From Escherichia phage vB_EcoM-RPN242, in the sequence record OL656110.1: a stretch of DNA of 64,000 nt. The stretch is one strand, 5' to 3'. Positions within the stretch are counted from its first letter, which is position 1. Each line of letters opens with the position of its first letter. Positions 12,229-24,767 of this stretch are shown one piece after another. Position numbers and translations under genes: made by a program. A model generated the notes under the pieces. The model was not told the origin of the DNA and made no database searches. It saw only the letters and a list, made by a program, of their open reading frames with translations.

Positions 12229-12552
12229 TTATTTGCGCAGGGCAACCACGAGTTCAGCGAGTTCACCAATGGTCGGGTCATCACCTTTACTACCCAGCCA
12301 ACCGTCGTCGATTTCGACCTGAAACTCTTCTTCTAGTTCCATTACGATTTCGATGGCATCCAGTTCGTCACCGCCGAGGTCTTTCTTGGTACGGAGACCA
12401 GCCAGCTTGTCCAGGGCGTCCTCGTTCTGAGATGCCACGTCGTCCAGCAATTTGCGCTTGTCATCGTCACGCCACAGATCCATATTCAGATTGTCAGTGG
12501 CGTACTGAGCCAGATGACGCATGACTTCAACATATGTTGGTTTACTGCTCAT
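12229..12552 (-). CDS. acyl-carrier-protein-like protein with Ser-to-Glu substitution at the phosphopantetheine site
   Basis: KKDLGGDELDAIEIVMELEEEFQVEIDD aligns with E. coli ACP [28 protein letters not shown]. The attachment Ser is encoded here as GAA (Glu), confirmed by reading the codon. SD GGGAGAA. Confidence 0.7.
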   Translation of the reverse strand: MSSKPTYVEVMRHLAQYATDNLNMDLWRDDDKRKLLDDVASQNEDALDKLAGLRTKKDLGGDELDAIEIVMELEEEFQVEIDDGWLGSKGDDPTIGELAELVVALRK

Positions 12553-12594: not shown

Positions 12595-14796
12595 TTAGAT
12601 TTTGATTTCTTTCTCTGTCAGTTCGGCAGTGACCTTGTACTTCACGCCATCCACTTCAACTTCCATGGTGGACTCTTCCAGGTCGAGGTCGGTGAACCAG
12701 CCGTGGCCAGCAACGATACCATACACCACTTTAGACAGTGTCTTGTTCAGGGCACGGACTTCGGTGATGGCCGCCTTGGCAGCAGCGTCGATCCAGTTTT
12801 CGATCAGCTGTTTCTGTAAGGCTTCAGGCACGGCAGTGATCATAGGAGACTTCACGAATGCTTCGTACTCTTTCAGAGCATTGGCGATGAACAAGTCACC
12901 AGCATTGAGTTTCTTGTTCTCTGCGATCTTCTTCTGTACTGCCGCGATGCTCGGTAGTGAAGACGCCCCGGCGATCTTCACGTTCAGCTCACGGCTCATG
13001 TAGAAGTCGGTAGACTCTTTGGTCTCAGTCTTCGGTGAGAAGCCGTAATCGCGGATGCCGTAGGAGGACAGGAACTCGGCCGCCTCAGCGCCGTACTGTA
13101 CTGCCAGGCCTTTGGCGTTACCCTTACCAACCAGGGCGTCTCGATAGAACTTCAGCACCTTCTGCTTGCCTTTCAGGGCTTCCAGACGGACATTATCCGC
13201 AAAGAACTGAGCAGCACTGATGTTCTTGACCATGGCGCGGTTGACCAGCGGTACGCTTTCCAGGTTCAGGACAAACACTTCCGGACCACCAAACACGTGG
13301 ACGCCCATTTCGATCAGCTTCTGTACAACTTCGATATCAGCCTTGAACGGCAGAGTCTTCACGTTAATGATACCGTCTTTGACGATGGTGTAGTTGCGCC
13401 ACTGGAAAGTATCCAGTTCTTCAGGCAGGCCAAACTTCTTCTGTGCGAATTCAGGCACAGCCACAGTACCGTGTTGAATTGTACGCACACTGATGTTCGG
13501 GCGCTCGGAGTTATAGACCAAATCACTGATTGGCACAACACCCAGATCGTTGGTAGGTTCGAACGTCGGGTTCCACTCTTCGTGCTCTGCCAGCTTGAGA
13601 GCCAGGGCTTTACGCTCTTCTTTGGACTGAGCATTCGCGATCTGTTCTGCCAGCTTGTCTTCGGTGTCGTCGGTTTTCTGCACAGTACCGCGCCCGATGC
13701 TCTTGTAGGAGAACATCGGATGCTTGGTAGCAACAGGCACACCAGCTTCAGCCAGGTACGTCAGAACATCAACGACGGTCGTCGCATCTTCGGCCGGAAC
13801 CAGGTCATAGTCAATACCGTCAACGCCGCGCAGCTGGTCATCAACGATGGCCTGGGTCAGATCGTTCTTGATGTTGGAGTAGTCCTGCTTGGTGAAGCAG
13901 TTGCTGTACTGTTTGATGAAGCGAACGTCGCCCGTCTTCTTCAGCGCAGCCCAAACCAGATCTGCGTCCATAGTGTGTACGCCGTAGAACGCCAGCACGT
14001 ATGCCGCCTGGATGTCCGCCAGGCTATCCATCTGGTCGATCATGTTAGGGTTTACAACCCACAGCTTGGTGACGCTCTCAGGGATGCTCACGTGGCCGAT
14101 AGGATGGTCTTCATCCGGCTGTACCGCCAGAACAGTTGCTACGCCGTTTTCAACATAGATAGCGTGGGTGTATAGCAGAGGCACATCAACAACCACCTTC
14201 GGTACTGATGACTTCAGCACGTTTTCCAGTTCGGTCTGGTATTCGGTCTGACCTTCGGCAAACACGTGAGTAGCACCAGAGCGTTCGGCCATCTGCGTCA
14301 GCAGTTCACGGTTACAGTGCCAGCCGTATTCGATAAATGTAATGTTATCGAAAGCAAATGGCAGGGTCTCAGCAACCAGTAGAATTTCGTTGGTACGCCA
14401 GCAGTTGTCATACCCGTCAGTCATGAACGCCAGGTTGTTGACGTAGCCAGGTTTCTTCAGGTCACGCGCAGTATCCATCGCCAGTTTCAATGGCTCAACG
14501 AATCCAGTACATCCGGACGGTTGCAGGAAGCGATCGATCAGTTTGTTCAGCTCGCTCAGGTCAGACGCAGCACCAACCTGGCGGCCAGCGAACACAGTGC
14601 CAAAGTCGCCTTTGGATGAGAAGTATAGAACACTTACAGTGTCTTCCGGTTTCACCAGGGAAGGCAGGTTCTCCTTCAGGTGCTTGCGGACTTCAGGAAG
14701 CGCACGGTACATAGAGCCGGAAATGTCTACAACGATTACATGGTTGGACGGAGCAGCAGTCGCAACCGCATTCTTAAATTCTAATGATTCAATCAT
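12595..14796 (-). CDS. von Willebrand factor A (vWA) domain protein, 733 aa
   Basis: N-terminal MIDAS motif VIVVDISGSM (DxSxS) followed by about 550 aa of unassigned sequence. Start taken at the ATG with an AAGAGA RBS (track start is further upstream). Confidence 0.7.
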   Translation of the reverse strand: MIESLEFKNAVATAAPSNHVIVVDISGSMYRALPEVRKHLKENLPSLVKPEDTVSVLYFSSKGDFGTVFAGRQVGAASDLSELNKLIDRFLQPSGCTGFVEPLKLAMDTARDLKKPGYVNNLAFMTDGYDNCWRTNEILLVAETLPFAFDNITFIEYGWHCNRELLTQMAERSGATHVFAEGQTEYQTELENVLKSSVPKVVVDVPLLYTHAIYVENGVATVLAVQPDEDHPIGHVSIPESVTKLWVVNPNMIDQMDSLADIQAAYVLAFYGVHTMDADLVWAALKKTGDVRFIKQYSNCFTKQDYSNIKNDLTQAIVDDQLRGVDGIDYDLVPAEDATTVVDVLTYLAEAGVPVATKHPMFSYKSIGRGTVQKTDDTEDKLAEQIANAQSKEERKALALKLAEHEEWNPTFEPTNDLGVVPISDLVYNSERPNISVRTIQHGTVAVPEFAQKKFGLPEELDTFQWRNYTIVKDGIINVKTLPFKADIEVVQKLIEMGVHVFGGPEVFVLNLESVPLVNRAMVKNISAAQFFADNVRLEALKGKQKVLKFYRDALVGKGNAKGLAVQYGAEAAEFLSSYGIRDYGFSPKTETKESTDFYMSRELNVKIAGASSLPSIAAVQKKIAENKKLNAGDLFIANALKEYEAFVKSPMITAVPEALQKQLIENWIDAAAKAAITEVRALNKTLSKVVYGIVAGHGWFTDLDLEESTMEVEVDGVKYKVTAELTEKEIKI

Positions 14797-15004
14797 TGTT
14801 CTCTTCGCCTTGTGCGTAAGGGTTAAGTTCAGACTCATCAGCGGCTTCGATGCGCGTCTTTACAGAGTCCAGCATATTGTTGATAAACTCACGAGACTGC
14901 TCCAGCTGAGCCAAGAGCACATCCTTTGGAGCATAGTTCTGAATGCAAGCCGGAATACTTTCAGACGTCGCCTTCAGGTCGGTAAAACATTCTTTCAGTA
15001 TCAT
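14789..15004 (-). CDS. hypothetical protein
   Basis: 71-aa ORF; its end overlaps the vWA gene start by 8 nt; weak SD. Confidence 0.45.
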   Translation of the reverse strand: MILKECFTDLKATSESIPACIQNYAPKDVLLAQLEQSREFINNMLDSVKTRIEAADESELNPYAQGEENND

Positions 15005-15086
15005 TTGATCTCACTTAACAGAGACGACACCCTGTTGGGATTTAATAGCGGTCTTCACGCGCCAGGGGTGATAGAATCACCGTAGA

Positions 15087-15320
15087 TCAGGCCGATGTGC
15101 TCATCCAACAGGAAGTGCCCAGTTTCAAAGATCTCCCACAGGCGCTGGATAGAGCCAACCGCTTCTGAACGTCTGATGATTTGATGTGAGCATCAATCAC
15201 CACGTTCTGAACATGGCCGATAGGGATACCAGATTTTTGAATCTTGATATGTTCCTCACCACCTGGGAAGGTGAAGTGTTTGTAGAACACATCTTGGTCG
15301 TTCAATTTCAAACGAAACAT
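15087..15320 (-). CDS. hypothetical protein (possible frameshifted gene continuing to about 15055)
   Basis: 77-aa ORF with SD GAGGT; the C-terminal 27 aa are low-complexity while another frame carries a more protein-like continuation. Confidence 0.4.
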   Translation of the reverse strand: MFRLKLNDQDVFYKHFTFPGGEEHIKIQKSGIPIGHVQNVVIDAHIKSSDVQKRLALSSACGRSLKLGTSCWMSTSA

Positions 15321-15669: not shown

Positions 15670-15975
15670 TCACTTAAACGAGTCAACGATGGATGTAAGA
15701 ATTTCGGGGGTGGGTTTGGCGTCTTGTGGTTCACGGAAACCCACCTTTGCGATGCGGCCCAAGACATTGTACACTTCGCGCGGAAGGGTGTCTACGACCG
15801 TGTCCGACATGAACGCCACGTCTTCTTGGATGGCGTTGTATTCGGCCAGTTTAGCCAGTTCTGATTCTACCAGGGACTTCAGCTTTTGCAATGGGTCGTT
15901 GCAATAGTTGAGACGGTTGCAGTTGGTGAGCGCCTGAGTTAGATTCTCAAACGCTTCTTGTATTTCCTTTGACAT
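15670..15975 (-). CDS. hypothetical protein
   Basis: 101-aa ORF from ATG 15975 with SD GAGG (track start is an upstream TTG). Confidence 0.45.
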   Translation of the reverse strand: MSKEIQEAFENLTQALTNCNRLNYCNDPLQKLKSLVESELAKLAEYNAIQEDVAFMSDTVVDTLPREVYNVLGRIAKVGFREPQDAKPTPEILTSIVDSFK

Positions 15976-16357
15976 TGATATGTGCCTCGTATTGTTGACA
16001 GACAACAACTACTTTACGGCACATGTCGATATCGAACAAGCCAATATGACACTCACGCTTCTTTATCCCCAGCTTATGCGCCAGCCAACTATAAGCGTCG
16101 CTCCTGCTCCTCTCTCCGCTTTTCCACAATGGGTCAAACGATCTATGGGCTTCCTGCTTAGCAGCACGGAGAGCGGCATTCGCCATCCTTCCCAAAGGTT
16201 GTCTGCCGTCGCCATGGGTATGGCAACCGACACGGGCATCACATGGAGTGCACACCCAGAACTTCAGATTGCGGAGGTCAGGGCGATGAGGGTAGAGAAC
16301 ATCACCACCGACGAATTCGGCTGGGAGGCCGCAGTAATCACAAATGACAGGTTTCAT
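15947..16357 (-). CDS. Cys-rich zinc-ribbon protein
   Basis: MKPVICDYCGLPAEF...VCTPCDARVGCHTHGDG carries paired Cys motifs; the track start is a GTG, trimmed here to the ATG. Confidence 0.5.
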   Translation of the reverse strand: MKPVICDYCGLPAEFVGGDVLYPHRPDLRNLKFWVCTPCDARVGCHTHGDGRQPLGRMANAALRAAKQEAHRSFDPLWKSGERSRSDAYSWLAHKLGIKKRECHIGLFDIDMCRKVVVVCQQYEAHINVKGNTRSV

Positions 16358-16361
16358 ATTC

Positions 16362-16393
16362 TTTGTCCAAAAGAAACCCCGCACATGGCGGGG
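16362..16393 (-). terminator. intrinsic terminator after gene 16418..16789
   Basis: CCCCGC-acatg-GCGGGG hairpin followed on the minus strand by TTTCTTTT. Confidence 0.6.
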
Positions 16394-16417
16394 TTGCTCA
16401 GGCTGAGGTCAGACAGA

Positions 16418-16789
16418 TTATTTCAGGAGTGCTTCCAGTTCTTCAACAGATTTGCTTTCCAGCTCTTGCTGTTTCTTACGTTGGATCAGCTCCAGGATAA
16501 CCTGGTTGTTCGCCTTACGCTCTGCCGCTTCTCTGCTGTCGTCACGTTCTTTCAGCTTAACGCCGATGATGTGCTTGACAACGTCGAAGCGCAGCTGCAG
16601 TTCGGAGTCAACGTTGCTTTTGGTACCAATGAAATCTTCTTCATCGGTTTCTGCTGCTTTCACCTGACGGCTCAGACCTTTCGCCATTTCGTTCAGGGCA
16701 GTCAGGCTCAGGTCCCAGACCTGCTCAACAGACAGCAGACCTTTGTTAGACTCGAAGCGCAGTTTCATACGGGTTGCTTTATCAAACAT
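16418..16789 (-). CDS. hypothetical protein
   Basis: 123-aa ORF with SD GAGGA 8 nt upstream; followed by an intrinsic terminator. Confidence 0.55.
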   Translation of the reverse strand: MFDKATRMKLRFESNKGLLSVEQVWDLSLTALNEMAKGLSRQVKAAETDEEDFIGTKSNVDSELQLRFDVVKHIIGVKLKERDDSREAAERKANNQVILELIQRKKQQELESKSVEELEALLK

Positions 16790-16833
16790 TTTACTATCCT
16801 CAATGATGAATGGGTTACAATTTCAAATCAGGT

Positions 16834-18852
16834 TTAGAACACAACTTTCACAGTGCGGTTGAACGAACCGCTCACCTTCACGAACACGTGGTTGCGTTGG
16901 GTGGTAGAGAAGCCCAGACCGGACAGCTGCTCAGTGCTTGGCTGTACTTTAATCTTACCACCTAACATTTCAAAAACCTTGCGGTGTTTATCAAGTTCCG
17001 GCTTCAGATATTCGTTATAGAAACCACGGGTGCCGACAGGGTTAGCACAACCTTCCAGGATGAAGAACACGTGCTTGTTGCCAGTCTGCTCGCCGTCCCA
17101 ATGGTTTGGTGAGTTCAGAACCAGCTGTACCTTCTGGAAGACGGAGGTCTTGATGCCCCAGATTTCCTGAGAGCGAGCGTCGTCTTTCAGGGTAGAACTG
17201 ATGTCAACCACCTGACCAGCGCGAACCTGAACCACAACAGCCAACGTGCGATCTTTGTTGCCCAGGCCAGGGTGTGAGAAGCGCTTAGTCTGGCCTTTGT
17301 ATTCAACTTCGATTTCGAAACCAACGTCACAGGTTTCACGCTTGTTGAAGTTGGTGACATAGAACTCATAATTCCCGTCACGCAACTTGCGTTCATCGCT
17401 AAAGAAGATGTTCTCCACCGGACGGCGGTTTGGATCAATGCCGTCCATACCGTTCATGTCGATGTCCAGAGTTGCGCCAGTTGTCGAACGACGGTTGCGA
17501 AAATATACGTGGTTGTGAAGAGGATCGTTCATGCTCAGATCCAGGTCGTCGTTGTTATGCCAAGCCAGTGACACGCGGAGGAAGCTGTCGACATTGCCGC
17601 CTGCGGTCTTCACGCGCTCTTTGATGGAGTCGGCCACTTCGCCATTGTACGACCAGCTGAAGCCGTTGTTCCACTTGAACAGGTTAGGAGCGCCTGCGGT
17701 AGCCGGAGCGATCAGGGACATCAGGTTGCCAATGTGAGAGTTTTCGACCAGCACTTCTAGGGAATGCGCCTTTGGCAACACGTTGGTCAGGAAGTCGTCG
17801 ATCGTGATCTCTTCAACCTTGTCCAGGGACTTTGTCGGAGTCTTCACTTCAGACGCCAGCTGAGCAAACGGGTCCATCTTCTTCTGAGCTGCCAGATCGG
17901 CGAACAGAACGTTGTTGATGGTCAGATCGTCATACACGGCATAACGGCGACCCAGTGAATCAGTCAGACCCAGCGCTTCGACTTCTTTCTGCGCGTTTTC
18001 AATCATCGACTTCGTGACCAGCGCGGTTGGGCGCTTGTAGTTCGTCGGAGCGACTTTGGCTTCAAAGGACTTCACGGCGGTTTCCAGATCCCGGCCTTCA
18101 TTGAGGTCTACCAGCAGAGAGCCAATCACGGTATTACGAATGCCGTGAGGGGTATGACCGTTTGCACGGTAGCCAGTGCGCCAAGCCCACAGAGCGCGTT
18201 TCTCTTCTGCAGTTTGTTCGTACAGGGTCTTGTTCACCACGAACGCCTGCACTGCCGCTTTGTGCTCTTCACCGCGATACAGAGAATTCTGGTCGATCAA
18301 TTCCAGAACGATTTCAGCCGATTCCAGAGACAGTTCACGCAGGCCGCGCTCAAACACTTCAATCGCCTGGCGGATTTCACCCTTCTTAGAAGCGATGGTA
18401 TCTGCCCGCAGAACATAGCTGCTCAGCAGGTCGGTGTGGAAGTGGTTGTAGGTGCGGACAATACCGTCTTTCATTTCGTGATTCGACCCAACACCAACTT
18501 TCTTGGTGTCGTTGAAGTACACGTCGACGATTGCGTGCTGCTTAACATATGCTGACAGCGCCGCAGCGACAACGTCGTATTCGTTACCCAACTGAATGTT
18601 ATCCCAGATAGAGATCACGTTCAGGTCGGAGTCGATGGTGACCACACCGCCGATGTTACGGATGAATTGTTTACAGCAGGTGCAGTCGTGCTCGGTACGC
18701 TCACGATAAAGCGGGTTAGTGCCAGCAGGGAAAGAAGACAGATACAGATCCCACAGAGCATCTTTATCGATGTTGGTCATGAACAGACCAGTTGCTGACA
18801 TGGCCCGCACGTTATTGTTGACAGCTACTGCGAAGGACTTAAAATCTGACAT
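16834..18852 (-). CDS. hypothetical large protein (672 aa)
   Basis: Long ORF with SD AGGAAG; no motif I can assign. Confidence 0.65.
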   Translation of the reverse strand: MSDFKSFAVAVNNNVRAMSATGLFMTNIDKDALWDLYLSSFPAGTNPLYRERTEHDCTCCKQFIRNIGGVVTIDSDLNVISIWDNIQLGNEYDVVAAALSAYVKQHAIVDVYFNDTKKVGVGSNHEMKDGIVRTYNHFHTDLLSSYVLRADTIASKKGEIRQAIEVFERGLRELSLESAEIVLELIDQNSLYRGEEHKAAVQAFVVNKTLYEQTAEEKRALWAWRTGYRANGHTPHGIRNTVIGSLLVDLNEGRDLETAVKSFEAKVAPTNYKRPTALVTKSMIENAQKEVEALGLTDSLGRRYAVYDDLTINNVLFADLAAQKKMDPFAQLASEVKTPTKSLDKVEEITIDDFLTNVLPKAHSLEVLVENSHIGNLMSLIAPATAGAPNLFKWNNGFSWSYNGEVADSIKERVKTAGGNVDSFLRVSLAWHNNDDLDLSMNDPLHNHVYFRNRRSTTGATLDIDMNGMDGIDPNRRPVENIFFSDERKLRDGNYEFYVTNFNKRETCDVGFEIEVEYKGQTKRFSHPGLGNKDRTLAVVVQVRAGQVVDISSTLKDDARSQEIWGIKTSVFQKVQLVLNSPNHWDGEQTGNKHVFFILEGCANPVGTRGFYNEYLKPELDKHRKVFEMLGGKIKVQPSTEQLSGLGFSTTQRNHVFVKVSGSFNRTVKVVF

Positions 18853-18966
18853 GATGTAATCTTCCTGTTTCAGTTCAAATGTGCGCCCCGTTTGCCAGGG
18901 CGCTTCGTTTAAGTGAGGTCAGTATACGCTGGATTGAGTTATTGAAGAACGAAGTAAAGGGAATCT

Positions 18967-19896
18967 TTATTCAGAAGAACCATATCGTTCTGTCCATTTA
19001 GGACATTTCAAAGGTTCCCACCCTCTATTGAAACGTTCGATAATGCTGTTTGTCGCATTAAAAGCCTTCAGGTCTTTTGTTCTGTACACATGCATGAGGG
19101 CTTCCGCTCTTTTCATTGTTTTTATTGCTTCAAGGAATTTATCAGCTTTTGACCAATACGCATCATTGTCGGGGTTCCATTTACCCTTCTCCCAAGGCAT
19201 CTTAGCCAACATGCCTTTCTGAGCGTTTTCTTTCTGTTTGGCGCGTTGCTCTGGTGTGAATGAGTTGGTTAAGTCCTTCCCATAATTGGGATTGAGTTCC
19301 CCAAGTTTAGCTTTACTGGCACGTTCAGAAAATTGTTCTAAATCTATGTTGGCGCGGCGTTTCTCTAAAACCCGCCTTTTATATTCAGGATCAGAAGCCA
19401 TCCTTTCATGGATTTTCATCAATCCTTTGGTAATTTTCTTGACTTGCTCTGGGGTTCTCTTATATCCATATTGGGGATTATTCTTTCCTCTTCTCCCATA
19501 CATTGGGTTGTTTGCCCCGACGCATTTGGAGACACCCTTTGTGAGTTTGGATATTCTTTGTCCAAATTCTTTCCTTAACTTTTCGTAAAGGTGAGAATTA
19601 AATTTTATACCCGTTGGTGTATACCTACCCCCACGGCTCATCAAAAGAACAGCATATACCATATCAGAATTCGGGAAAGCCAAGGCCAAGCATACATGGA
19701 CAAGATAATGTTGTCTGCCTGTTAATCGAACCAAATTTATCTTATCTTTAGAATATTCAGGGAACATGCTCTTGGGAAGGATGTGGTGCAATTCAGTGTA
19801 GTCACCATCAGAATATTTGAAAGATTGAACCATCATCAAATACTTCTTGATGAAATGCGGTTTACCGCCTTTAGAAATCAATAATTCGTAAAACAT
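18967..19896 (-). CDS. HNH homing endonuclease with NUMOD-like repeats (free-standing)
   Basis: HNH core TELHHILPKSMFPEYSKDKINLVRLTGRQHYLVH plus repeated NPMYGRRGKNNPQYG motifs; sits between core genes. Confidence 0.8.
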   Translation of the reverse strand: MFYELLISKGGKPHFIKKYLMMVQSFKYSDGDYTELHHILPKSMFPEYSKDKINLVRLTGRQHYLVHVCLALAFPNSDMVYAVLLMSRGGRYTPTGIKFNSHLYEKLRKEFGQRISKLTKGVSKCVGANNPMYGRRGKNNPQYGYKRTPEQVKKITKGLMKIHERMASDPEYKRRVLEKRRANIDLEQFSERASKAKLGELNPNYGKDLTNSFTPEQRAKQKENAQKGMLAKMPWEKGKWNPDNDAYWSKADKFLEAIKTMKRAEALMHVYRTKDLKAFNATNSIIERFNRGWEPLKCPKWTERYGSSE

Positions 19897-19955
19897 AACA
19901 GGAACTCCAAATGAAAGTTCCTGTTATAATATACTTTCTTAACTCACAAAGTAAG

Positions 19956-21149
19956 TTACTTTTTAAATAAATTTAGTAGGTTTTTAGAACCAGATGTCGC
20001 TTTAGGTTGTCCTTCCCCATCGTATCCAACCTTCCCGCGCGGTTTTTTACCTTGCTGTACAGCCTCTACACAACGGGTATATTTCTGAAGTTCACAAAAC
20101 ATATTTTCTCCTGCCATTATATTTAAATGGCGATCCCAAGGCTCTTCCACAGACCAAAATTCTTCCCTGTTATACCCAAGAGGACCATAAACTGCGTCCT
20201 GGTTGTCCCGTAGCCAGAAGATGCATTCTTCGTGGGTCATACCGTCTTTGTTCAGGAACAGCAGATCAATACCTGCGCGACAGCCTGGTCCAGCAACCGT
20301 GAAGTGGTTCTCACTGAAAGGATATTCAGGAATGTAAGTGAAGTCTACCCAGATCTGATAGGCCAGGAATGGACCAAGCCCTTCGATGTCGTCATACATG
20401 CGCTGGTATACTTCCAAAGGAGTACCAAGGCGCAGCAGGTCATGGAAATAATTTGGATACTTGTTGACGAATGCCTTCAGGGAGCGGATGACACGCATTG
20501 GCATGTACGGTTCCCAACCTTCGATGGTGTAGAAGTCCGGCTCTGCTTCGGCTATCGCCTTGGCTTCTTTATAATCCATGTTCTGGGTTGAACCGTCTTT
20601 ACAGATCAGATTCACCATCATCCCACCGAAGCGCTGCTCCTTGTGGTTGACAACCATCTCAGGGAAAGCCAGGCATTGCTTCAGGCCGCCCGTGTTGAAG
20701 GCATTGGTGAATACCTTACCGCCGTCGGCCTCGAACTTCTGAAGTCGTTCGCGGGTTGCATCGAGGTTGATCTCGGCGAATTCTTTGATCGTCATCGCGC
20801 CGCCGATAGCCTGGATTGGATCCCAGAGGTTGAACATGCGGAACATCACGCAGTTGAACATCTTGTCGGCCATACCCAGAGCATCGTTGTTGACAATGTT
20901 GTTGATCAGGTTGAGAGACTGCCTGTCGTGCTCTCTCCGGACATTACAGAACTTGACCTGCCGTAGTATGGGATTATCAGTCCAAGGAGCAGGAAGGCGC
21001 TGGACGTCCTTCTTGACGTGGATCTGATAACGATCGCGCATCCATTCGTAAGACAGGCGGGTATGGGTCGGACTGAGAACCGGTTTGGCCGACTTTATCT
21101 TTTCTTCACGGACACCGCAGTACGGGACGTCTAGGGCTTTATCTTTCAT
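19956..21149 (-). CDS. hypothetical protein (397 aa)
   Basis: ORF with good SD AGAGGA 5 nt upstream; no assignable motif. Confidence 0.65.
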   Translation of the reverse strand: MKDKALDVPYCGVREEKIKSAKPVLSPTHTRLSYEWMRDRYQIHVKKDVQRLPAPWTDNPILRQVKFCNVRREHDRQSLNLINNIVNNDALGMADKMFNCVMFRMFNLWDPIQAIGGAMTIKEFAEINLDATRERLQKFEADGGKVFTNAFNTGGLKQCLAFPEMVVNHKEQRFGGMMVNLICKDGSTQNMDYKEAKAIAEAEPDFYTIEGWEPYMPMRVIRSLKAFVNKYPNYFHDLLRLGTPLEVYQRMYDDIEGLGPFLAYQIWVDFTYIPEYPFSENHFTVAGPGCRAGIDLLFLNKDGMTHEECIFWLRDNQDAVYGPLGYNREEFWSVEEPWDRHLNIMAGENMFCELQKYTRCVEAVQQGKKPRGKVGYDGEGQPKATSGSKNLLNLFKK

Positions 21150-21157
21150 GGTATCCT

Positions 21158-21195
21158 CTTAGAATACGAAAACAGAGGCCATTATAGCCTCTGTT
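21158..21195 (-). terminator. intrinsic terminator after gene 21218..22090
   Basis: 9-bp stem AACAGAGGC/GCCTCTGTT followed on the minus strand by TTCGTATTCT. Confidence 0.5.
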
Positions 21196-21217
21196 GTTTA
21201 GTGAATAACTGTATATC

Positions 21218-22090
21218 TTAATCGATACGGGTCAGTTGGGTGATAGATGATTGCACTGGGCTGGCCACATAGATACGGACGTTGGCTTTCCATTCACCCC
21301 AGATCAACGGCAGAGTTGGGAAGTTGTCTTCATTGAAAACAAACACGGGAATGTAGCTCTCGACTGTTTCGCCAGAGAACGCCTGAAAGCCCATCTTGGT
21401 GTATCCCATGATCTCGTCAATAAAATCGAACGGAGCGAAGGCAACACCAGCGTGTTCGTTAGAACCGAGCTGGCCTGGAATGGCCGTGCCCGTCAGAATG
21501 ATTTCGGTGATCTGGCGCTTAGGCTCGGTGGTCAACATATCAGAGAAGTCAGGCTCTTTGAAGGTTGCCATGTTCTTCAGGAACTTGCCAGCCGGGTACT
21601 CTTTGCCGTCGACAGTGATGGTGTCCACCACTTTGATGCACGCCTGAGGGAATTCCCCTTCGATGCGCAGACTTTCGCGTGGGAAGCCTTTGTTGTAGTA
21701 GTAATCCAGTGCAGGCACAACTTCACCTTCATTACGGATGAACTTGCTCATGTTAGAGGCATACACGCGCTGTAGGCATTCGTCACCGTCGAAACCAGCA
21801 ATATGAGCCACACCGTCGTTGACTGTTGTGATGTCGCCCTGGGCGTCCATGATCTGGCGCATGATGTCTTTGATGTCGACAACAACGGGTTCTTTCAGGA
21901 CTCGCGGAGATGCAGTGAACTCAATTTTCACCTCGTGGTCGAAATACGCCGCTTCCAGCAGTTCACGGGTTTCTTCCAGCACCAGTTTCGCCTGATTGCG
22001 GATCTTACCAAAGTCGGGCGATGTGACGTCGCCCTTTGCATTACCGAAAGCCAGATTCAGATTCACGTTCTTGGAAAATGTAGTTGTCAT
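21218..22090 (-). CDS. hypothetical protein (290 aa)
   Basis: ORF with SD GGAG; followed by a terminator hairpin at 21171-21195. Confidence 0.6.
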   Translation of the reverse strand: MTTTFSKNVNLNLAFGNAKGDVTSPDFGKIRNQAKLVLEETRELLEAAYFDHEVKIEFTASPRVLKEPVVVDIKDIMRQIMDAQGDITTVNDGVAHIAGFDGDECLQRVYASNMSKFIRNEGEVVPALDYYYNKGFPRESLRIEGEFPQACIKVVDTITVDGKEYPAGKFLKNMATFKEPDFSDMLTTEPKRQITEIILTGTAIPGQLGSNEHAGVAFAPFDFIDEIMGYTKMGFQAFSGETVESYIPVFVFNEDNFPTLPLIWGEWKANVRIYVASPVQSSITQLTRID

Positions 22091-22106
22091 AATATAGCGA
22101 CTCCAG

Positions 22107-22571
22107 TTATTCGCTTTTTGCCTTTGTAGGCCGGATGATGTATTTTGGAACCAGCTTCCATTCAGGAACCTGATCGTGTTTAACCACTTTAATGCGAGAC
22201 ATATCGGCTGCTTCGGTGACCTGCTCAGGATGAATGACCTTCACCATGTTCCACTGCTCCAGCAGCTTGATGATTCGGTTCATCCTCAGGACATCTTCGC
22301 GGTTAAATCCGTTGTAATGCCCGTCCAGCATAAATAGATGCTTAAAGTGGACGATATAATACTTACCACACTTATGAAGAATATGGCAAGTCTGATACAG
22401 AGTATTCGGCTCTTGGCGCGTGTTTACCCCAATTCGACTCAGTGTTTCCTTGATCCCCAGAAATATACCTGGCCGATCTTGGTTCAATTGAACTTCAACC
22501 ATACAATCAACGATGCTGGCCTCATCGTTGACTGCTGAAATATTCAATATGTCTAGCGTATTACGCGCCAT
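22107..22571 (-). CDS. regA: translational repressor RegA
   Basis: KETLSRIGV...LYQTCHILHKCGKYYIVHFKHLFMLDG...EWKLVPKYIIRP matches T4 RegA blocks; SD AAGGGGA upstream of ATG 22571. Has an N-terminal extension of about 30 aa relative to T4. Confidence 0.75.
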   Translation of the reverse strand: MARNTLDILNISAVNDEASIVDCMVEVQLNQDRPGIFLGIKETLSRIGVNTRQEPNTLYQTCHILHKCGKYYIVHFKHLFMLDGHYNGFNREDVLRMNRIIKLLEQWNMVKVIHPEQVTEAADMSRIKVVKHDQVPEWKLVPKYIIRPTKAKSE

Positions 22572-22600
22572 GACTCATTCCCCTTTTACAATAGTTTGAA

Positions 22601-23023
22601 CTATTTAGCCTTGCGCGGTTTCGCTTTGGCGTTCAGCTCAGTGCGTCTCATCTTCTCGCGTATCTCGGCCAGGACTTCCTTCGGCAAGAAACGGACGTAC
22701 TCCGATGCCTTCTCCATGCTGATGTAGAAGTACTCTGAGAGTAACTTCACGTCAGGATCAATCGGACCTTTCTTAGACCATTTATCGTAGCGTTTCCGAG
22801 CCGGAATGGTGTAAAAGGCATATGACCATTGCATCCATGGAGTGATAGCATGTAGCTTATTCATCTGTTGCGCAGCCACTAGAGTGTCTTTGCTCTGAGC
22901 TAAACCACGCCGCGTCATAAACGGGTCGAATCCTTTCAACACTTCTGGGTCATCAGACCGCAAAAGGTTTTCTTTGCTGCTGTTCAGAGCAGCCAGGTAA
23001 TCGAACAATCCAAGGGCGGCCAT
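22601..23023 (-). CDS. 62: clamp-loader small subunit (T4 gp62-like)
   Basis: IPARKRYDKWSKK resembles T4 gp62 VPRGKRYGKWAK; start overlaps the gp44 stop, as in T4. Confidence 0.65.
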   Translation of the reverse strand: MAALGLFDYLAALNSSKENLLRSDDPEVLKGFDPFMTRRGLAQSKDTLVAAQQMNKLHAITPWMQWSYAFYTIPARKRYDKWSKKGPIDPDVKLLSEYFYISMEKASEYVRFLPKEVLAEIREKMRRTELNAKAKPRKAK

Positions 23024-23027
23024 AATA

Positions 23028-24017
23028 TCACTTCCACTTGATGTTGAGCATGACATTGGTCAGGAAAAACACGGCATGCAGCCAGACATCGCCGACTTGA
23101 CGGTGTTCAATCTGAGACTGACCACATACGCATACCAGATCAGGGATAGACTCATTCTGAACCAACATTTGCTTCTCTTTATCCTGTGGTACACAGAACT
23201 GGAAGAAGCGGGAATAGAAGTCTTCAGTGATATAGTTCTGGTTGTCGGTCACCCACTGCTTCATCCCAGCCCAGTCATTATCCTTCAACATATCCACCAA
23301 CATGCCCATATCGGCCGATTTTAACACAGCCAGTGCACGTTCGTCAATCTTGCCGTAAGTGGTGACGTTATCCTGTAGAACACCCATGATGCGGCGGTTA
23401 TCAGGGAAATGGCGCTTGACAATAGCAGCCAACACAGGAGGGTCATACTCAACACCTTCGCAGCGAAGGATTTCAGCACAGCGGCGCATGAACTGAAGTT
23501 TGACCTCATCAGCCTCGGTCTCATTCCAGATAAAGTCGATTTCACGGCAACGAGAGCGCAGAGGTTCGTTCACACGTTGCTTGGCGTTGGTGGTCAGGAT
23601 GAATGAACAGTTCTTGGAGACCTTCTCCACAATACCCTTCAGCGACTCCTGTGCCGCCATAGACAGACGCTCTACTTCGTCGAGGATAACGACTTTGCGA
23701 CCACCGAATACGCTCACACCAGTAGAGTACTGAATCACGCGGTCACGGATAACGTCGATGCTGTTGTCCAGGGATGCGTTGATCATCAGTGGTTGCTTAC
23801 AACCGATTTCATTACACACGGCCAGGGCGGAGGTAGTCTTGCCAGTACCAGGCTGAGGGGAGTAGAACAGCATAGACGGGATGTTGCCGTTGCCGCTGGT
23901 GATGTAGCCATGGATTTTAGCGCGGACGTCTTGAGGGATGATAATCTCGTCCAGGTTGTCAGGGCGGAAGCGGTTTTCCCATGCATACTGGTCTTTTACA
24001 ATTGTGATATTAGACAT
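23028..24017 (-). CDS. 44: clamp-loader AAA+ ATPase (T4 gp44-like)
   Basis: Walker A SPQPGTGKTT, DEVE Walker B and sensor motifs; SD GAGG. Confidence 0.85.
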   Translation of the reverse strand: MSNITIVKDQYAWENRFRPDNLDEIIIPQDVRAKIHGYITSGNGNIPSMLFYSPQPGTGKTTSALAVCNEIGCKQPLMINASLDNSIDVIRDRVIQYSTGVSVFGGRKVVILDEVERLSMAAQESLKGIVEKVSKNCSFILTTNAKQRVNEPLRSRCREIDFIWNETEADEVKLQFMRRCAEILRCEGVEYDPPVLAAIVKRHFPDNRRIMGVLQDNVTTYGKIDERALAVLKSADMGMLVDMLKDNDWAGMKQWVTDNQNYITEDFYSRFFQFCVPQDKEKQMLVQNESIPDLVCVCGQSQIEHRQVGDVWLHAVFFLTNVMLNIKWK

Positions 24018-24098: not shown

Positions 24099-24767
24099 TT
24101 ACTCAATCTGTGCGCCGACGAAGTAATTGATCGTCGCGTCGGATGATTGGAAGTTCACCATCTGTAGATCAGCACAGGCACGCAGAGTGTAGTTGCCTTC
24201 GATCATTTTCAGGTTGGCAACATCCAGCGGCATTACGAAGTCCGGCAGCGCGGTTTCGCCCAGCTCAACAGTGTAGTTGTTGGAGTTGTCCAAGGTAGTG
24301 GTGGTTGCAACCAGGCGAGTTTTGCCACCCTGAGCAACCAGGCGCACAGTCTTGTGTCCGAGGGTAGAGCAGGCGCGGGTCAGTTCTTTCATCTTCTCTG
24401 GAGTGATGATCGCTTCAAAGTCAACAGACGGCAGTTCAATGGTGTCAGCCGGGACAACCGTGAGTTCTTTAGCAGAACGCCAGAATTGCAGCTGAGAGCT
24501 TTCGCCTTTCAACAGGATGTAGTCCTGATGGAATTCGGCTTTGGCACCTTTGAAGGAAGGTAGGCGCTGGATGGCCAGAAGTTTGGTCAGGTCCAGAATC
24601 GGGAACTCAAACGGGAAGTCTTCTTCGATCTGCGCCACGGCGATCACAGTAGAAGAATCATTAATACTGCGCAGCATCTTACCCGGTGTCAGAACGATAG
24701 ATGGGTTGATGGTCTCAAAGTTGGCCAGCAACTGAAGTGTACGTTCGGAGAGAGTGATCTCTTGCAT
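24099..24767 (-). CDS. 45: sliding clamp (T4 gp45-like)
   Basis: 222 aa; N-terminus LLANFETINPSIVL parallels T4 gp45 LLKNFATINSGIML; gene order 45-44-62-regA matches T4. Confidence 0.8.
   Translation of the reverse strand: MQEITLSERTLQLLANFETINPSIVLTPGKMLRSINDSSTVIAVAQIEEDFPFEFPILDLTKLLAIQRLPSFKGAKAEFHQDYILLKGESSQLQFWRSAKELTVVPADTIELPSVDFEAIITPEKMKELTRACSTLGHKTVRLVAQGGKTRLVATTTTLDNSNNYTVELGETALPDFVMPLDVANLKMIEGNYTLRACADLQMVNFQSSDATINYFVGAQIE

Follow-up and report, generated by a model that had tools for sequence, protein, structure and literature searches.

A conserved stretch downstream of regA in a ViI-like Escherichia phage: an ortholog of ViI gp160 among elements that are probably unrelated

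Introduction

One of the proteins considered here belongs to a gene set described in phages with hypermodified thymidine. The base 5-NeOmdU was rebuilt from five lysates, one of which was that of gp160 of phage ViI (PMC5889632). In reconstitution in vitro with purified components, gp160-type proteins were dispensable for the formation of both 5-NeOmdU and N-alpha-GlyT (PMC8989533). In gp186 of phage SP10 the kinase is fused to a clade-1 domain (PMC5889632, Table 3), and the SP10 kinase domain is active in isolation (PMC8989533). A 5-hmdU phage also needs a dTTPase (PMC8989533), and a demonstrated precedent for a dTTPase/dUTPase in such a phage is gp18 of phage SH-Ab 15599 (PMC13458397). In the related phage SW16-7 the 5-hmdU DNA kinase, the clade-2 transferase and the PLP decarboxylase have been reported, and a separate dUTP diphosphatase is annotated (PMC10458263).

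Here we analyse a block of genes at positions 16834-22090 of the window, a stretch of 64,000 nucleotides from Escherichia phage vB_EcoM-RPN242 (OL656110.1). The phage of the window is an Agtrevirus-like, ViI-like member of the Ackermannviridae, and two of the proteins show 100% identity to ones recorded for vB_EcoM-RPN242. In our view the block is very probably a conserved early/middle stretch of this family, lying downstream of 45-44-62-regA and holding four unrelated elements, and not one system.

Results

The upstream order 45-44-62-regA, proposed in the initial annotation from the sequence alone, was confirmed by Pfam matches of each gene: gp45 (24099-24767, weak match to gp45-slide_C), gp44 (23028-24017, AAA and Gp44_lid), gp62 (22601-23056, Phage_clamp_A) and the translational repressor regA (22107-22571, Translat_reg, E 2.1e-34), which anchors the block on its upstream side. 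These genes and all the others of the block lie on the minus strand, in tight packing. The four open reading frames of 290, 397, 309 and 672 aa were found where they had been placed, and are real genes since each of them has hundreds of conserved homologues. A sequence search matched 282 phage records. AV101 is 94% identical to the query with 100% coverage; PC3 and PH4 are 98% identical except for the HNH gene, and PC3, PH4, ZQ1 and A221 show 97-98% identity over just 83% of the query. The gene order of the block is annotated alike in AV101, SJ3, Vi01 and PC3.

The 397-aa protein (19956-21149, minus strand) matches Pfam PF18723 (HMUDK_hel) with an E-value of 1.8e-78 and 264.2 bits (cut-off 25), the alignment spanning profile positions 4-280 of 281. 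Over its full length it is 76% identical to Vi01_130c (= orf00160, gp160), and both genes are situated between the MazG-like gene and DUF8224. By family membership the protein is assigned firmly to the thymidine-hypermodification gene set, as an aGPT-Pplase of clade 1. The genes of the block had been called unknown; in fact, public records already name two of the products, the 397-aa protein going under 5-hmdU DNA kinase helical-domain or aGPT-Pplase clade 1 in UniRef and in one or more phage records, and many records labelling the 290-aa protein a MazG-like pyrophosphatase.

The 397-aa protein is probably an active enzyme, because its cysteine and the glutamate four residues upstream appear to match the motif of nucleophile and metal ligand in PUGT, a clade-2 glycine transferase of solved structure. 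The candidate active-site motif reads E348-N-M-F-C352-E353-x2-K356-Y357, and C352, E353, K356 and Y357 are invariant from the Ackermannviridae to PaMx11 gp50 and gp53 of the Microbacterium phage Morrigan, in which Gln replaces the upstream Glu of the motif. A weak pairwise BLASTP alignment (E 0.038) sets it against E243-T244-x2-C247 of PUGT (residues from PMC11472151), and the comparison of clade-1 and clade-2 profiles gave no detectable relationship (hhalign probability 0.1). The protein would act after replication on 5-hmdU DNA, in the gene set that makes 5-NeOmdU, where it may attack C6 of the C5-substituted uracil alongside the 5-hmdU DNA kinase; the candidate reactions are a second group transfer or the conversion of 5-phosphomethyl-dU to thymidine.

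It is possible, if rather doubtful, that the protein is not an enzyme itself and serves the 5-hmdU DNA kinase as a non-catalytic helical accessory in DNA binding or base flipping. So much is implied by the Pfam name, '5-hmdU DNA kinase, helical domain', and would suit the fusion to the kinase in SP10 gp186, the arrangement in PaMx11, where the start codon of the clade-1 gene gp50 overlaps the stop codon of gp49, the kinase gene immediately before it, and the dispensability of the protein with purified components together with the activity of the isolated SP10 kinase domain. In the Ackermannviridae, however, the clade-1 gene lies far from both kinase genes, and invariance of Cys-Glu-x2-Lys-Tyr across Ackermannviridae, Pseudomonas and Microbacterium phages, in a context resembling that of the catalytic Cys247 and the metal-binding Glu243 of PUGT, would be unusual for a purely structural domain.

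The 290-aa protein (21218-22090, minus strand) matches phrog_2144, 'MazG-like pyrophosphatase', with E 4e-132 and is the ortholog of Vi01_131c (60% identity). Taken by itself its sequence gave no direct match to the MazG fold in Pfam or PDB, whereas a profile of 42 of its remote relatives matched the DR2231 dUTPase at E 1.8e-6, and relatives matched the Pfam families PRA-PH (n = 14), MazG-like (n = 5) and MazG (n = 4). The acidic metal-binding motif ExxE ... (E/D)xxxD is present, and E40, E43, D82 and D86 are invariant across the 42 sequences, whose mean column identity is 19%. The AF2 model, with a mean pLDDT of 40.6, was unusable for a check of the four-helix bundle. Profile matches and acidic motif establish the protein, at the level of sequence, as an all-alpha NTP pyrophosphohydrolase of the MazG/DR2231 type. 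Its catalytic domain takes up the N-terminal ~190 aa and is followed by a C-terminal extension of ~100 aa, which was seen only in full-length relatives, namely in records of Ackermannviridae and in the library's three closest representatives. The catalytic domain by itself has homologues at 50-54% identity in N4-like phages of Pectobacterium, Kosakonia and Klebsiella (Cbunavirus-type) and at 33% in PAK_P1-like Pseudomonas phages. Neither of these two groups is known to use 5-hmdU.

Most likely the 290-aa enzyme would convert dTTP and/or dUTP to the monophosphate, and by this removal 5-hmdUTP could take the place of dTTP during replication. Such clearance is plausible, not demonstrably its task, and only one possibility, because the N-terminal domain occurs also in phages that are not known for 5-hmdU and a classical dUTPase is encoded in the same genomes (PMC10458263). 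A pyrophosphatase with no part in thymidine replacement, devoted to general house-cleaning or to signalling nucleotides (non-canonical dNTPs or alarmones, for instance), appears the less probable assignment but has to be taken seriously: besides the homologues in N4-like and PAK_P1-like phages and the separate dUTP diphosphatase of SW16-7, the PRA-PH and MazG families matched by the remote relatives have diverse substrates. Against it stand the best solved relative, which is the dUTP-specific enzyme DR2231, and the gene's neighbour, which in all the Ackermannviridae genomes examined is the gp160-type gene. The dTTPase which a 5-hmdU phage requires (PMC8989533) likewise found no candidate in this analysis other than the 290-aa protein.

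The 309-aa protein (18967-19896, minus strand) had been called an HNH homing endonuclease, and rightly so: it matches phrog_655 (E 3.8e-61), phrog_12434 'HNH endonuclease' (E 7e-18) and Pfam NUMOD3 (25.3 bits, cut-off 20.4). On these matches we regard it as a free-standing HNH/NUMOD3 homing endonuclease, and on its patchy occurrence as an optional mobile element. The gene is missing in PC3, PH4, ZQ1, A221 and ViI, the flanks of the relatives without it being otherwise 96-98% identical to the window, and its GC content is 0.40 as against 0.49-0.52 in the neighbouring genes. Junctions mapped against relatives delimit an inserted or replaced segment from ~18975 to ~20015. The gene would have entered where the gp160-type gene has its 3' end, bringing a replacement tail to it. 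An RNA hairpin at 19894-19928 (minus strand; MFE -20.4 kcal/mol, z -5.0, with 0/200 shuffles folding as well) covers the GGAG Shine-Dalgarno sequence and the AUG of the endonuclease gene, whose ribosome-binding site it would hide; we infer a regulatory role for it. Hairpins that sequester the ribosome-binding site are known for the intron-borne and free-standing endonuclease genes of T4.

The 672-aa protein (16834-18852, minus strand) belongs to phrog_1735. All its close homologues, including 99% identical ones, carry the precomputed label PF26675 (DUF8224), while the window protein itself was unmatched in the local copy of Pfam. The conserved N-terminal region has an invariant CxxC (C57, C60) and H137, and a TerD-like insert at about residues 415-560, which has the TerD beta-sandwich fold, is followed by a conserved C-terminal domain. 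The Pfam TerD profile itself found no match in 31 full-length members (E up to 1) or in seven excised domains (E up to 10). A gene for a protein of ~125 aa (16418-16789, minus strand; phrog_2018, E 1.4e-47) follows directly downstream. A homologous small gene stands in the same place in 7/8 inspected contexts, and at 77/78 IMG/VR loci the partner is downstream on the same strand, in 59 of them within 300 bp. Our best guess for DUF8224 is a role in DNA or nucleotide metabolism as a protein that binds metal or Ca2+.

DUF8224 was found in 556 phage records of many lineages, the clade-1 protein in 404 with a different spread of taxa. Searches for a clade-1 transferase homologue found none in the DUF8224-bearing Vequintavirinae, Bastillevirinae, phiCbK-like, Schitoviridae and cyanophage genomes. 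With high probability, then, DUF8224 and its ~125-aa partner are a two-gene module of many unrelated large phages, independent of thymidine hypermodification.

The DNA polymerase gene had been noted as missing after regA, and Pfam and PHROG profile searches of the block confirmed that no family-B polymerase gene stands directly downstream of regA and that none of the four proteins matches a polymerase, exonuclease or P-loop family; nor did tblastn with the Vi01 polymerase find one in the 64-kb window. To describe the block as standing 'instead of gene 43' is nevertheless misleading, for this gene order differs from that of T4 throughout the family and the polymerase has not been replaced. In Vi01 it lies at 145-148 kb and the block at about 85-90 kb, ~55 kb apart; in ViI the polymerase gene adjoins those of the kinase and the clade-2 transferase, and AV101 has it at 6.1-9.1 kb, with ~95 kb between it and the block. 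In all likelihood the gene is elsewhere in the present genome too, as in all sequenced relatives examined. The 5-hmdU DNA kinase, the clade-2 transferase and the PLP decarboxylase were likewise not found inside the 64-kb window; AV101, the closest complete relative, has a kinase (gp243 type), a clade-2 transferase (gp247 type), a PLP enzyme (gp226 type) and the DNA polymerase, all at 2-14 kb.

It had been suggested that the block as a whole encodes base modification and that the 397-aa and 672-aa proteins are the best candidates for novel enzymes. The link holds for the 397-aa protein as a PF18723 member and gp160 ortholog, is plausible only for the 290-aa protein and is unsupported for the 672-aa one, whose family is common in phages where the search for the clade-1 transferase found no homologue. 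A base-modification operon that replaces gene 43, includes the 672-aa gene and contributes two novel modification enzymes is very unlikely. The 397-aa protein does belong to the hypermodification gene set, the 290-aa protein could perform a pre-replicative step, and the genes are co-oriented and tightly packed. However, the HNH gene is an optional insertion, in AV101 ~95 kb separate the block from the genes of the kinase, the clade-2 transferase, the PLP enzyme and the polymerase, and DUF8224 occurs with its partner in Mydovirus, Bastillevirinae, phiCbK-like, Zurivirus, Fukuivirus, Xp12-like and jumbo phages and in a giant virus, where the clade-1 transferase was not found. In all probability the four elements of the block are unrelated and do not make up one base-modification unit.

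That DUF8224 forms, with the neighbouring 747-aa vWA protein (12595-14838, 2 kb off), a Ter-like, vWA/MoxR-linked stress or counter-defence module is scarcely credible: despite the TerD-like domain, the DUF2201 (vWA-like) and MoxR-type AAA proteins directly upstream in Alteromonas phage AD45-P1 and the AAA ATPases also near in phages Zuri and BMBsp2, the vWA protein is distributed otherwise (Ackermannviridae, Slopekvirus/Karamvirus-type T4-like, PBS1 and Rhizobium phages), neighbour clustering of 80 loci linked only the small partner consistently to DUF8224, PADLOC gave no hits, and the shorter homologues of Xp12, PaMx74 and KpLz-2_45 have no TerD-like insert.

Discussion

Most of the block is already known, and the module of DUF8224 and its partner is the sole real unknown in it. 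The family of the 290-aa protein has in common with DR2231 of Deinococcus radiodurans, and with the all-alpha MazG/HisE enzymes, the profile match and the four invariant acidic residues, and differs from DR2231 in the extra C-terminal domain of ~100 aa, nearly all carriers of which are Ackermannviridae.

The clade-2 amino-acid:DNA transferases PUGT (PaMx11 gp46), M6 gp51 and ViI gp247 share a gene set with the clade-1 protein, and both clades are predicted to have the same HhH glycosylase-like class of fold (PMC8989533). They also resemble each other locally, in that a Cys close to the C-terminal end has a Glu four positions upstream of it (EVETILC in gp46, EVEHTLC in gp50, GENMFC in the 397-aa protein), but have no significant overall similarity in sequence or profile. 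Amino-acid transfer is a feature of clade 2, whereas reconstitution from purified components succeeded without the clade-1 protein (PMC8989533).

The endonuclease is like the free-standing homing endonucleases of the T4 type in its HNH and NUMOD3 matches, its intergenic place, its patchy presence among near-identical genomes, its lower GC content and the hairpin at its ribosome-binding site; unlike their clean intergenic placement, however, the insertion in the window reaches into the final codons of the gene beside it. TerD, the Ca2+-binding beta-sandwich of tellurite resistance (PDB 2kxt, 2qz7), has its counterpart in DUF8224 only as an insert, the protein as a whole being far larger.

For the block as a whole the nearest described counterpart is phage ViI (Vi01), in which Vi01_131c, Vi01_130c (gp160) and Vi01_129c/128c follow regA in the same order and orientation as in the window. 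The three proteins are orthologs of those in the window, the MazG-like pair being 60% identical, the gp160 pair 76% and the DUF8224 pair about 80%. Vi01 is without an endonuclease at the site, flanked by the gp160-type gene and DUF8224, where the window has the HNH gene; relative to Vi01 the gp160-type gene of the window has an altered 3' tail, whereas the DUF8224 gene, annotated as two CDSs in Vi01, is a single open reading frame in the window.

Genomic context of the block

The four ORFs of 290, 397, 309 and 672 aa that the initial annotation had listed after the gene order 45-44-62-regA were all found on the minus strand at 16834-22090. Immediately 5' of the block, also on the minus strand and in order of transcription, are the genes of the sliding clamp (24099-24767), of the large (23028-24017; AAA and Gp44_lid) and small (22601-23056; Phage_clamp_A) subunits of the clamp loader and of RegA (22107-22571; Translat_reg, E 2e-34). 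Searches of Pfam, PHROGs and NCBIfam gave no match to a polymerase, exonuclease or P-loop family for any of the four proteins, which confirms what had been noticed from the sequence alone. The proposal that the block is present instead of gene 43 does not hold. A DNA polymerase gene was not found anywhere within the 64-kb window; in phage Vi01 this gene (Vi01_190, at 145-148 kb) is about 55 kb from the block and a few genes upstream of those of the gp243 kinase and the gp247 transferase, and in Escherichia phage AV101 (Aglimvirinae) about 95 kb separate the block from the polymerase gene at 6.1-9.1 kb, the 2-14 kb region of AV101 also holding the genes of the gp243-type kinase, the gp247-type transferase and the gp226-type PLP enzyme. 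Since the polymerase is encoded elsewhere in both phages, the block does not replace gene 43 and the gene order is merely different. According to a review of the family, genes are more widely dispersed in Ackermannviridae than in T4-like phages (PMC11721090).

The block is a standard Ackermannviridae arrangement. Megablast of the region 16400-22600 returned 282 phage records, essentially all of them Ackermannviridae, with AV101 94% identical across the entire query and PC3, PH4 and ZQ1 about 98% identical at 83% coverage. Escherichia phage vB_EcoM-RPN242 has proteins that match the 290-aa and 397-aa products with 100% identity. The annotated order of regA, MazG-like gene, gp160-type gene, optional HNH gene, 672-aa gene and a gene of about 123 aa is the same in AV101, SJ3, Vi01 and PC3. 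The description of these genes as unknown was too strong, the 397-aa gene being published, the 290-aa gene already annotated as MazG-like and the 309-aa gene encoding a mobile endonuclease. The hypermodification link was published in 2018-2021, and papers or public annotation already cover most of the content. What seems to be new is modest: a clade 1 motif paralleling the clade 2 active site, the mode of endonuclease insertion, and the near-obligate pairing of DUF8224 with its partner together with an optional TerD-like insert.

Further along the minus strand, a 145-aa DUF3268 zinc-finger protein (15947-16384; Pfam E 2.7e-37) is encoded by a real conserved gene, and the 285-aa plus-strand ORF (15980-16837) that overlaps this gene and that of the DUF8224 partner, and is unannotated in the relatives, looks like an antisense shadow ORF. 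The region 15045-15320 (minus strand; 77-aa ORF at 15087-15320) is the remnant of a cassette of NAMPT and ribose-phosphate pyrophosphokinase genes, of which the first 89 or so codons of the latter (65% identity) and a 44-residue NAMPT fragment are left; in AV101 both genes are intact between the vWA and DUF3268 genes, and the cassette is variable among Agtrevirus phages (PMC11721090, a review). Beyond the remnant lies the gene of a 747-aa vWA-domain protein (phrog_2426; 12595-14838, minus strand), which is followed by a 107-aa acyl-carrier-protein-like gene (12229-12552, minus strand).

The homing endonuclease and its insertion

The assignment of the 309-aa product (18967-19896) as an HNH endonuclease was borne out by phrog_655 ('homing endonuclease', E 3.8e-61) and by a Pfam NUMOD3 match. 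The GC content of the gene is 0.40, against 0.49-0.52 in the adjoining genes. In the alignment with PC3 the identity continues to position 18974 and includes the stop codon and the last codons of the PC3 gp160-type gene, reused as the end of the HNH ORF; past this position about 1 kb is absent from PC3, and the homology comes back near 20015, within the 3' end of the 397-aa gene. Thus the HNH ORF terminates, at 18967-18974, on the stop and the last Glu codon of the ancestral gp160-type gene, and as the insertion reaches the 3' end of the 397-aa gene, the C-terminal tail of the latter is unlike those in PC3 and Vi01. The new 20-residue tail (about 19956-20015; ..SGSKNLLNLFKK) nevertheless resembles the old one (..RGSVNLLDRLKKPE in Vi01), and a diverged version of the target gene's end seems to have come with the inserted cassette.

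The Shine-Dalgarno sequence (GGAG) and the AUG of the HNH gene are buried in a strong hairpin at 19894-19928 (minus strand; -20.4 kcal/mol, z -5.0). Ahead of the hairpin comes TATATTATAA, a sequence loosely similar to a T4-type late promoter. The hairpin and the promoter-like sequence suggest that translation of the endonuclease may be gated by which transcript is made. In AV101 (L001, 22573-22797) an extra 74-aa ORF of about 244 bp, lacking in the window, lies between the HNH gene and the DUF8224 gene, and a 97-aa ORF occupies this position in SJ3; the junction that flanks the endonuclease gene is a minor indel hot spot.

DUF8224 and its partner

The 672-aa protein (16834-18852) matches more than 5,400 protein clusters, most with about 50% identity along the full length and all bearing the precomputed label PF26675 (DUF8224). 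A literature search for DUF8224, PF26675 and phrog_1735 found no paper, and a virion proteomics paper on Vi01-like phages held no information on this protein. Foldseek comparison of its model with the PDB gave only generic beta-sandwiches, the BFVD search only uncharacterised viral homologues, and the family profile search against the PDB, the direct PDB sequence searches with the 290-, 397- and 672-aa proteins and the NCBIfam and PADLOC searches nothing relevant. Public records of phages Gloob and pSC20 (OL615011, OK539832) call the protein 'DNA-directed RNA polymerase', a label for which the present analysis found no support, and other records call it 'putative YfaP' or 'galactose-binding domain protein'; in Vi01 (L008, 13301-15320) the gene is annotated as two CDSs, Vi01_128c and Vi01_129c.

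A CxxC motif (C57, C60) and H137 in the N-terminal region are invariant among 31 full-length members and also in the short homologues, and Y37, E51, R52 and D56 only among the full-length members. In the alignment of the short homologues from Xp12, PaMx74 and KpLz-2_45, the N-terminal region and the C-terminal domain are kept and exactly the TerD-like segment (residues 415-560 or so) is missing. A TerD domain detectable by sequence was ruled out, as sequence profiles give no TerD match.

The most constant companion of DUF8224 is the 123-aa partner gene (phrog_2018; 16418-16789, minus strand) directly downstream of it. A partner homologue lies immediately 3' of DUF8224 in seven of the eight contexts inspected by hand, and among 80 IMG/VR loci, most of them 43-52% identical to the 672-aa protein, the partner HMM placed it 3' of DUF8224 and in the same orientation in 77 of the 78 with enough sequence, within 300 bp in 59. 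It was not detected beside the short (Xp12-type) or Cellulophaga homologues. Clustering of the neighbours in the 80 loci revealed no other consistently conserved gene. A gene of about 486 aa upstream was dropped as a second partner because it occurs in only 9 of the 80 loci and, judging by its sequence, looks repeat-rich and possibly structural. The idea that DUF8224 acts with the neighbouring vWA protein was rejected since the vWA protein has a different spread, being common to Slopekvirus/Karamvirus-type T4-like phages (KP15, KP27, GAP161), PBS1 and Rhizobium phages, and since in the Bradyrhizobium context the DUF8224 neighbour is a GHKL ATPase and not a vWA protein.

Ribonucleotide reductase genes lie directly upstream of the DUF8224-type gene, or at most two small genes away, in three unrelated phages: Xp12 (L015, 3839-5488; class Ia), PaMx74 (L016, 3899-5512; NrdJ) and phi17:2 (L014, 4010-6178; alpha and beta subunits). 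A DNA ligase gene comes a short way further on in Xp12 and PaMx74, and other neighbours include a DNA polymerase in a Mydovirus and a ligase-like protein in a metagenomic contig. These variable but often DNA- or nucleotide-related neighbours give a weak hint of a role in DNA or nucleotide metabolism.

By tblastn, DUF8224 is present in 556 phage records, including Ackermannviridae, Vequintavirinae (Mydovirus), Bacillus Bastillevirinae, one Schitoviridae phage, one Microcystis phage, phiCbK-like and Seuss-like Caulobacter phages and phages of Alteromonas, Vibrio and Cellulophaga. The clade 1 transferase encoded by the 397-aa gene occurs in 404 records, from Ackermannviridae, Vibrio, Microbacterium and M6/PaMx11-type Pseudomonas phages, and these differing spreads indicate that DUF8224 is not tied to thymidine hypermodification. 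With over 5,400 clusters and 556 records, DUF8224 and its partner are among the more widely distributed functionally unassigned phage gene pairs, and the partner linkage and the optional TerD-like insert provide an entry point for experiments. It is possible, and in our opinion rather doubtful, that the two genes form an undescribed and very widespread viral module (invariant CxxC...H, optional TerD-like Ca2+-binding insert, recurrent replication or ribonucleotide reductase neighbours) with a novel role either in the DNA or nucleotide metabolism of phages or in taking over the host and that, separately, the clade 1 aGPT-Pplase is the long-missing enzyme converting 5-phosphomethyl-dU in DNA to thymidine.

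Relation to thymidine hypermodification

The supposed link of the block to base modification stands for the 397-aa gene, which belongs to the published hypermodification set, and is only plausible for the 290-aa gene; it does not extend to DUF8224, nor is the entire block likely to be a base-modification unit.

The 290-aa protein (21218-22090) matches phrog_2144 ('MazG-like pyrophosphatase', E 4e-132) and, more weakly over residues 2-193, a nucleotide pyrophosphohydrolase family in PHROGs. It is 60% identical to Vi01_131c, and many public records annotate its homologues as nucleoside triphosphate pyrophosphohydrolase. As a query it had no direct Pfam or PDB match, and its AlphaFold model, built from 16 close homologues, reached a pLDDT of only 40.6. 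An exhaustive HMMER search retrieved 236 more distant relatives which, beyond the closest few, align to residues 1-190 or so only; E40, E43, D82 and D86 are invariant in the alignment of 42 of them. The match of the relatives' profile to Deinococcus DR2231, a MazG-like NTP pyrophosphohydrolase (E 1.8e-6), these acidic residues and the Pfam matches among family members (14 PRA-PH, five MazG-like, four MazG) support the predicted membership in the all-alpha NTP pyrophosphohydrolase superfamily. Phages using 5-hmdU need a dTTPase (PMC8989533). Against a dTTP/dUTP role counts the presence of the catalytic domain in N4-like phages of Pectobacterium, Kosakonia and Klebsiella (50-54% identity) and in PAK_P1-like Pseudomonas phages (33%), and we give dTTP/dUTP as the substrate roughly even odds.

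The 397-aa protein (19956-21149) matches Pfam PF18723 (HMUDK_hel, that is, aGPT-Pplase clade 1; 264 bits) and is 76% identical to Vi01_130c, which its note 'orf00160' equates with the gp160 of Lee et al. (PMC5889632, Table 3). There, gp160 was among five lysates that jointly rebuilt 5-NeOmdU, and the authors stated that they could not say which of these were required. In later work the kinase, gp247 (serine transfer) and gp226 (decarboxylation) account for the pathway and gp160 is given no role (PMC8989533). Nevertheless, the clade 1 protein is conserved wherever the thymidine hypermodification pathway occurs. From the borohydride result of PMC8989533 and older phiW-14 work we infer the reduction of 5-phosphomethyl-dU to thymidine as a candidate reaction. 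The present analysis sharpens two questions, the reaction of the clade 1 aGPT-Pplase and the function of DUF8224 with its partner.

In PaMx11 (L023, 2911-4367) the 5-hmdU DNA kinase gene gp49 runs straight into the clade 1 gene gp50, which begins at the gp49 stop codon and adjoins the dUMP hydroxymethylase homologue gp51. The gp49/gp50 junction mirrors the situation in SP10, where the kinase and the clade 1 domain are fused (PMC5889632).

Alignment of the Ackermannviridae proteins with PaMx11 gp50 and Microbacterium phage Morrigan gp53 shows C352-E353-x2-K356-Y357 to be invariant, along with F67, N69, R72, D75, R104, N107 and G287-P-G289. The profile search with the clade 1 family against the PDB found nothing, hhalign of its profile with ViI gp247 indicated no relationship, and gp46 of PaMx11, the solved clade 2 enzyme PUGT, aligns weakly with gp50 (BLASTP E 0.038). 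The resemblance of the motif to the PUGT active site in this weak alignment is suggestive of a catalytically competent clade 1, and the conserved Glu-x3-Cys-Glu motif offers specific residues for mutagenesis. In PUGT, Cys247 is the proposed nucleophile and the metal is held by Glu243 and Thr244 (PMC11472151); the context of C352, GENMFC in the window and EVEHTLC in gp50, resembles the EVETILC at Cys247 of that enzyme.
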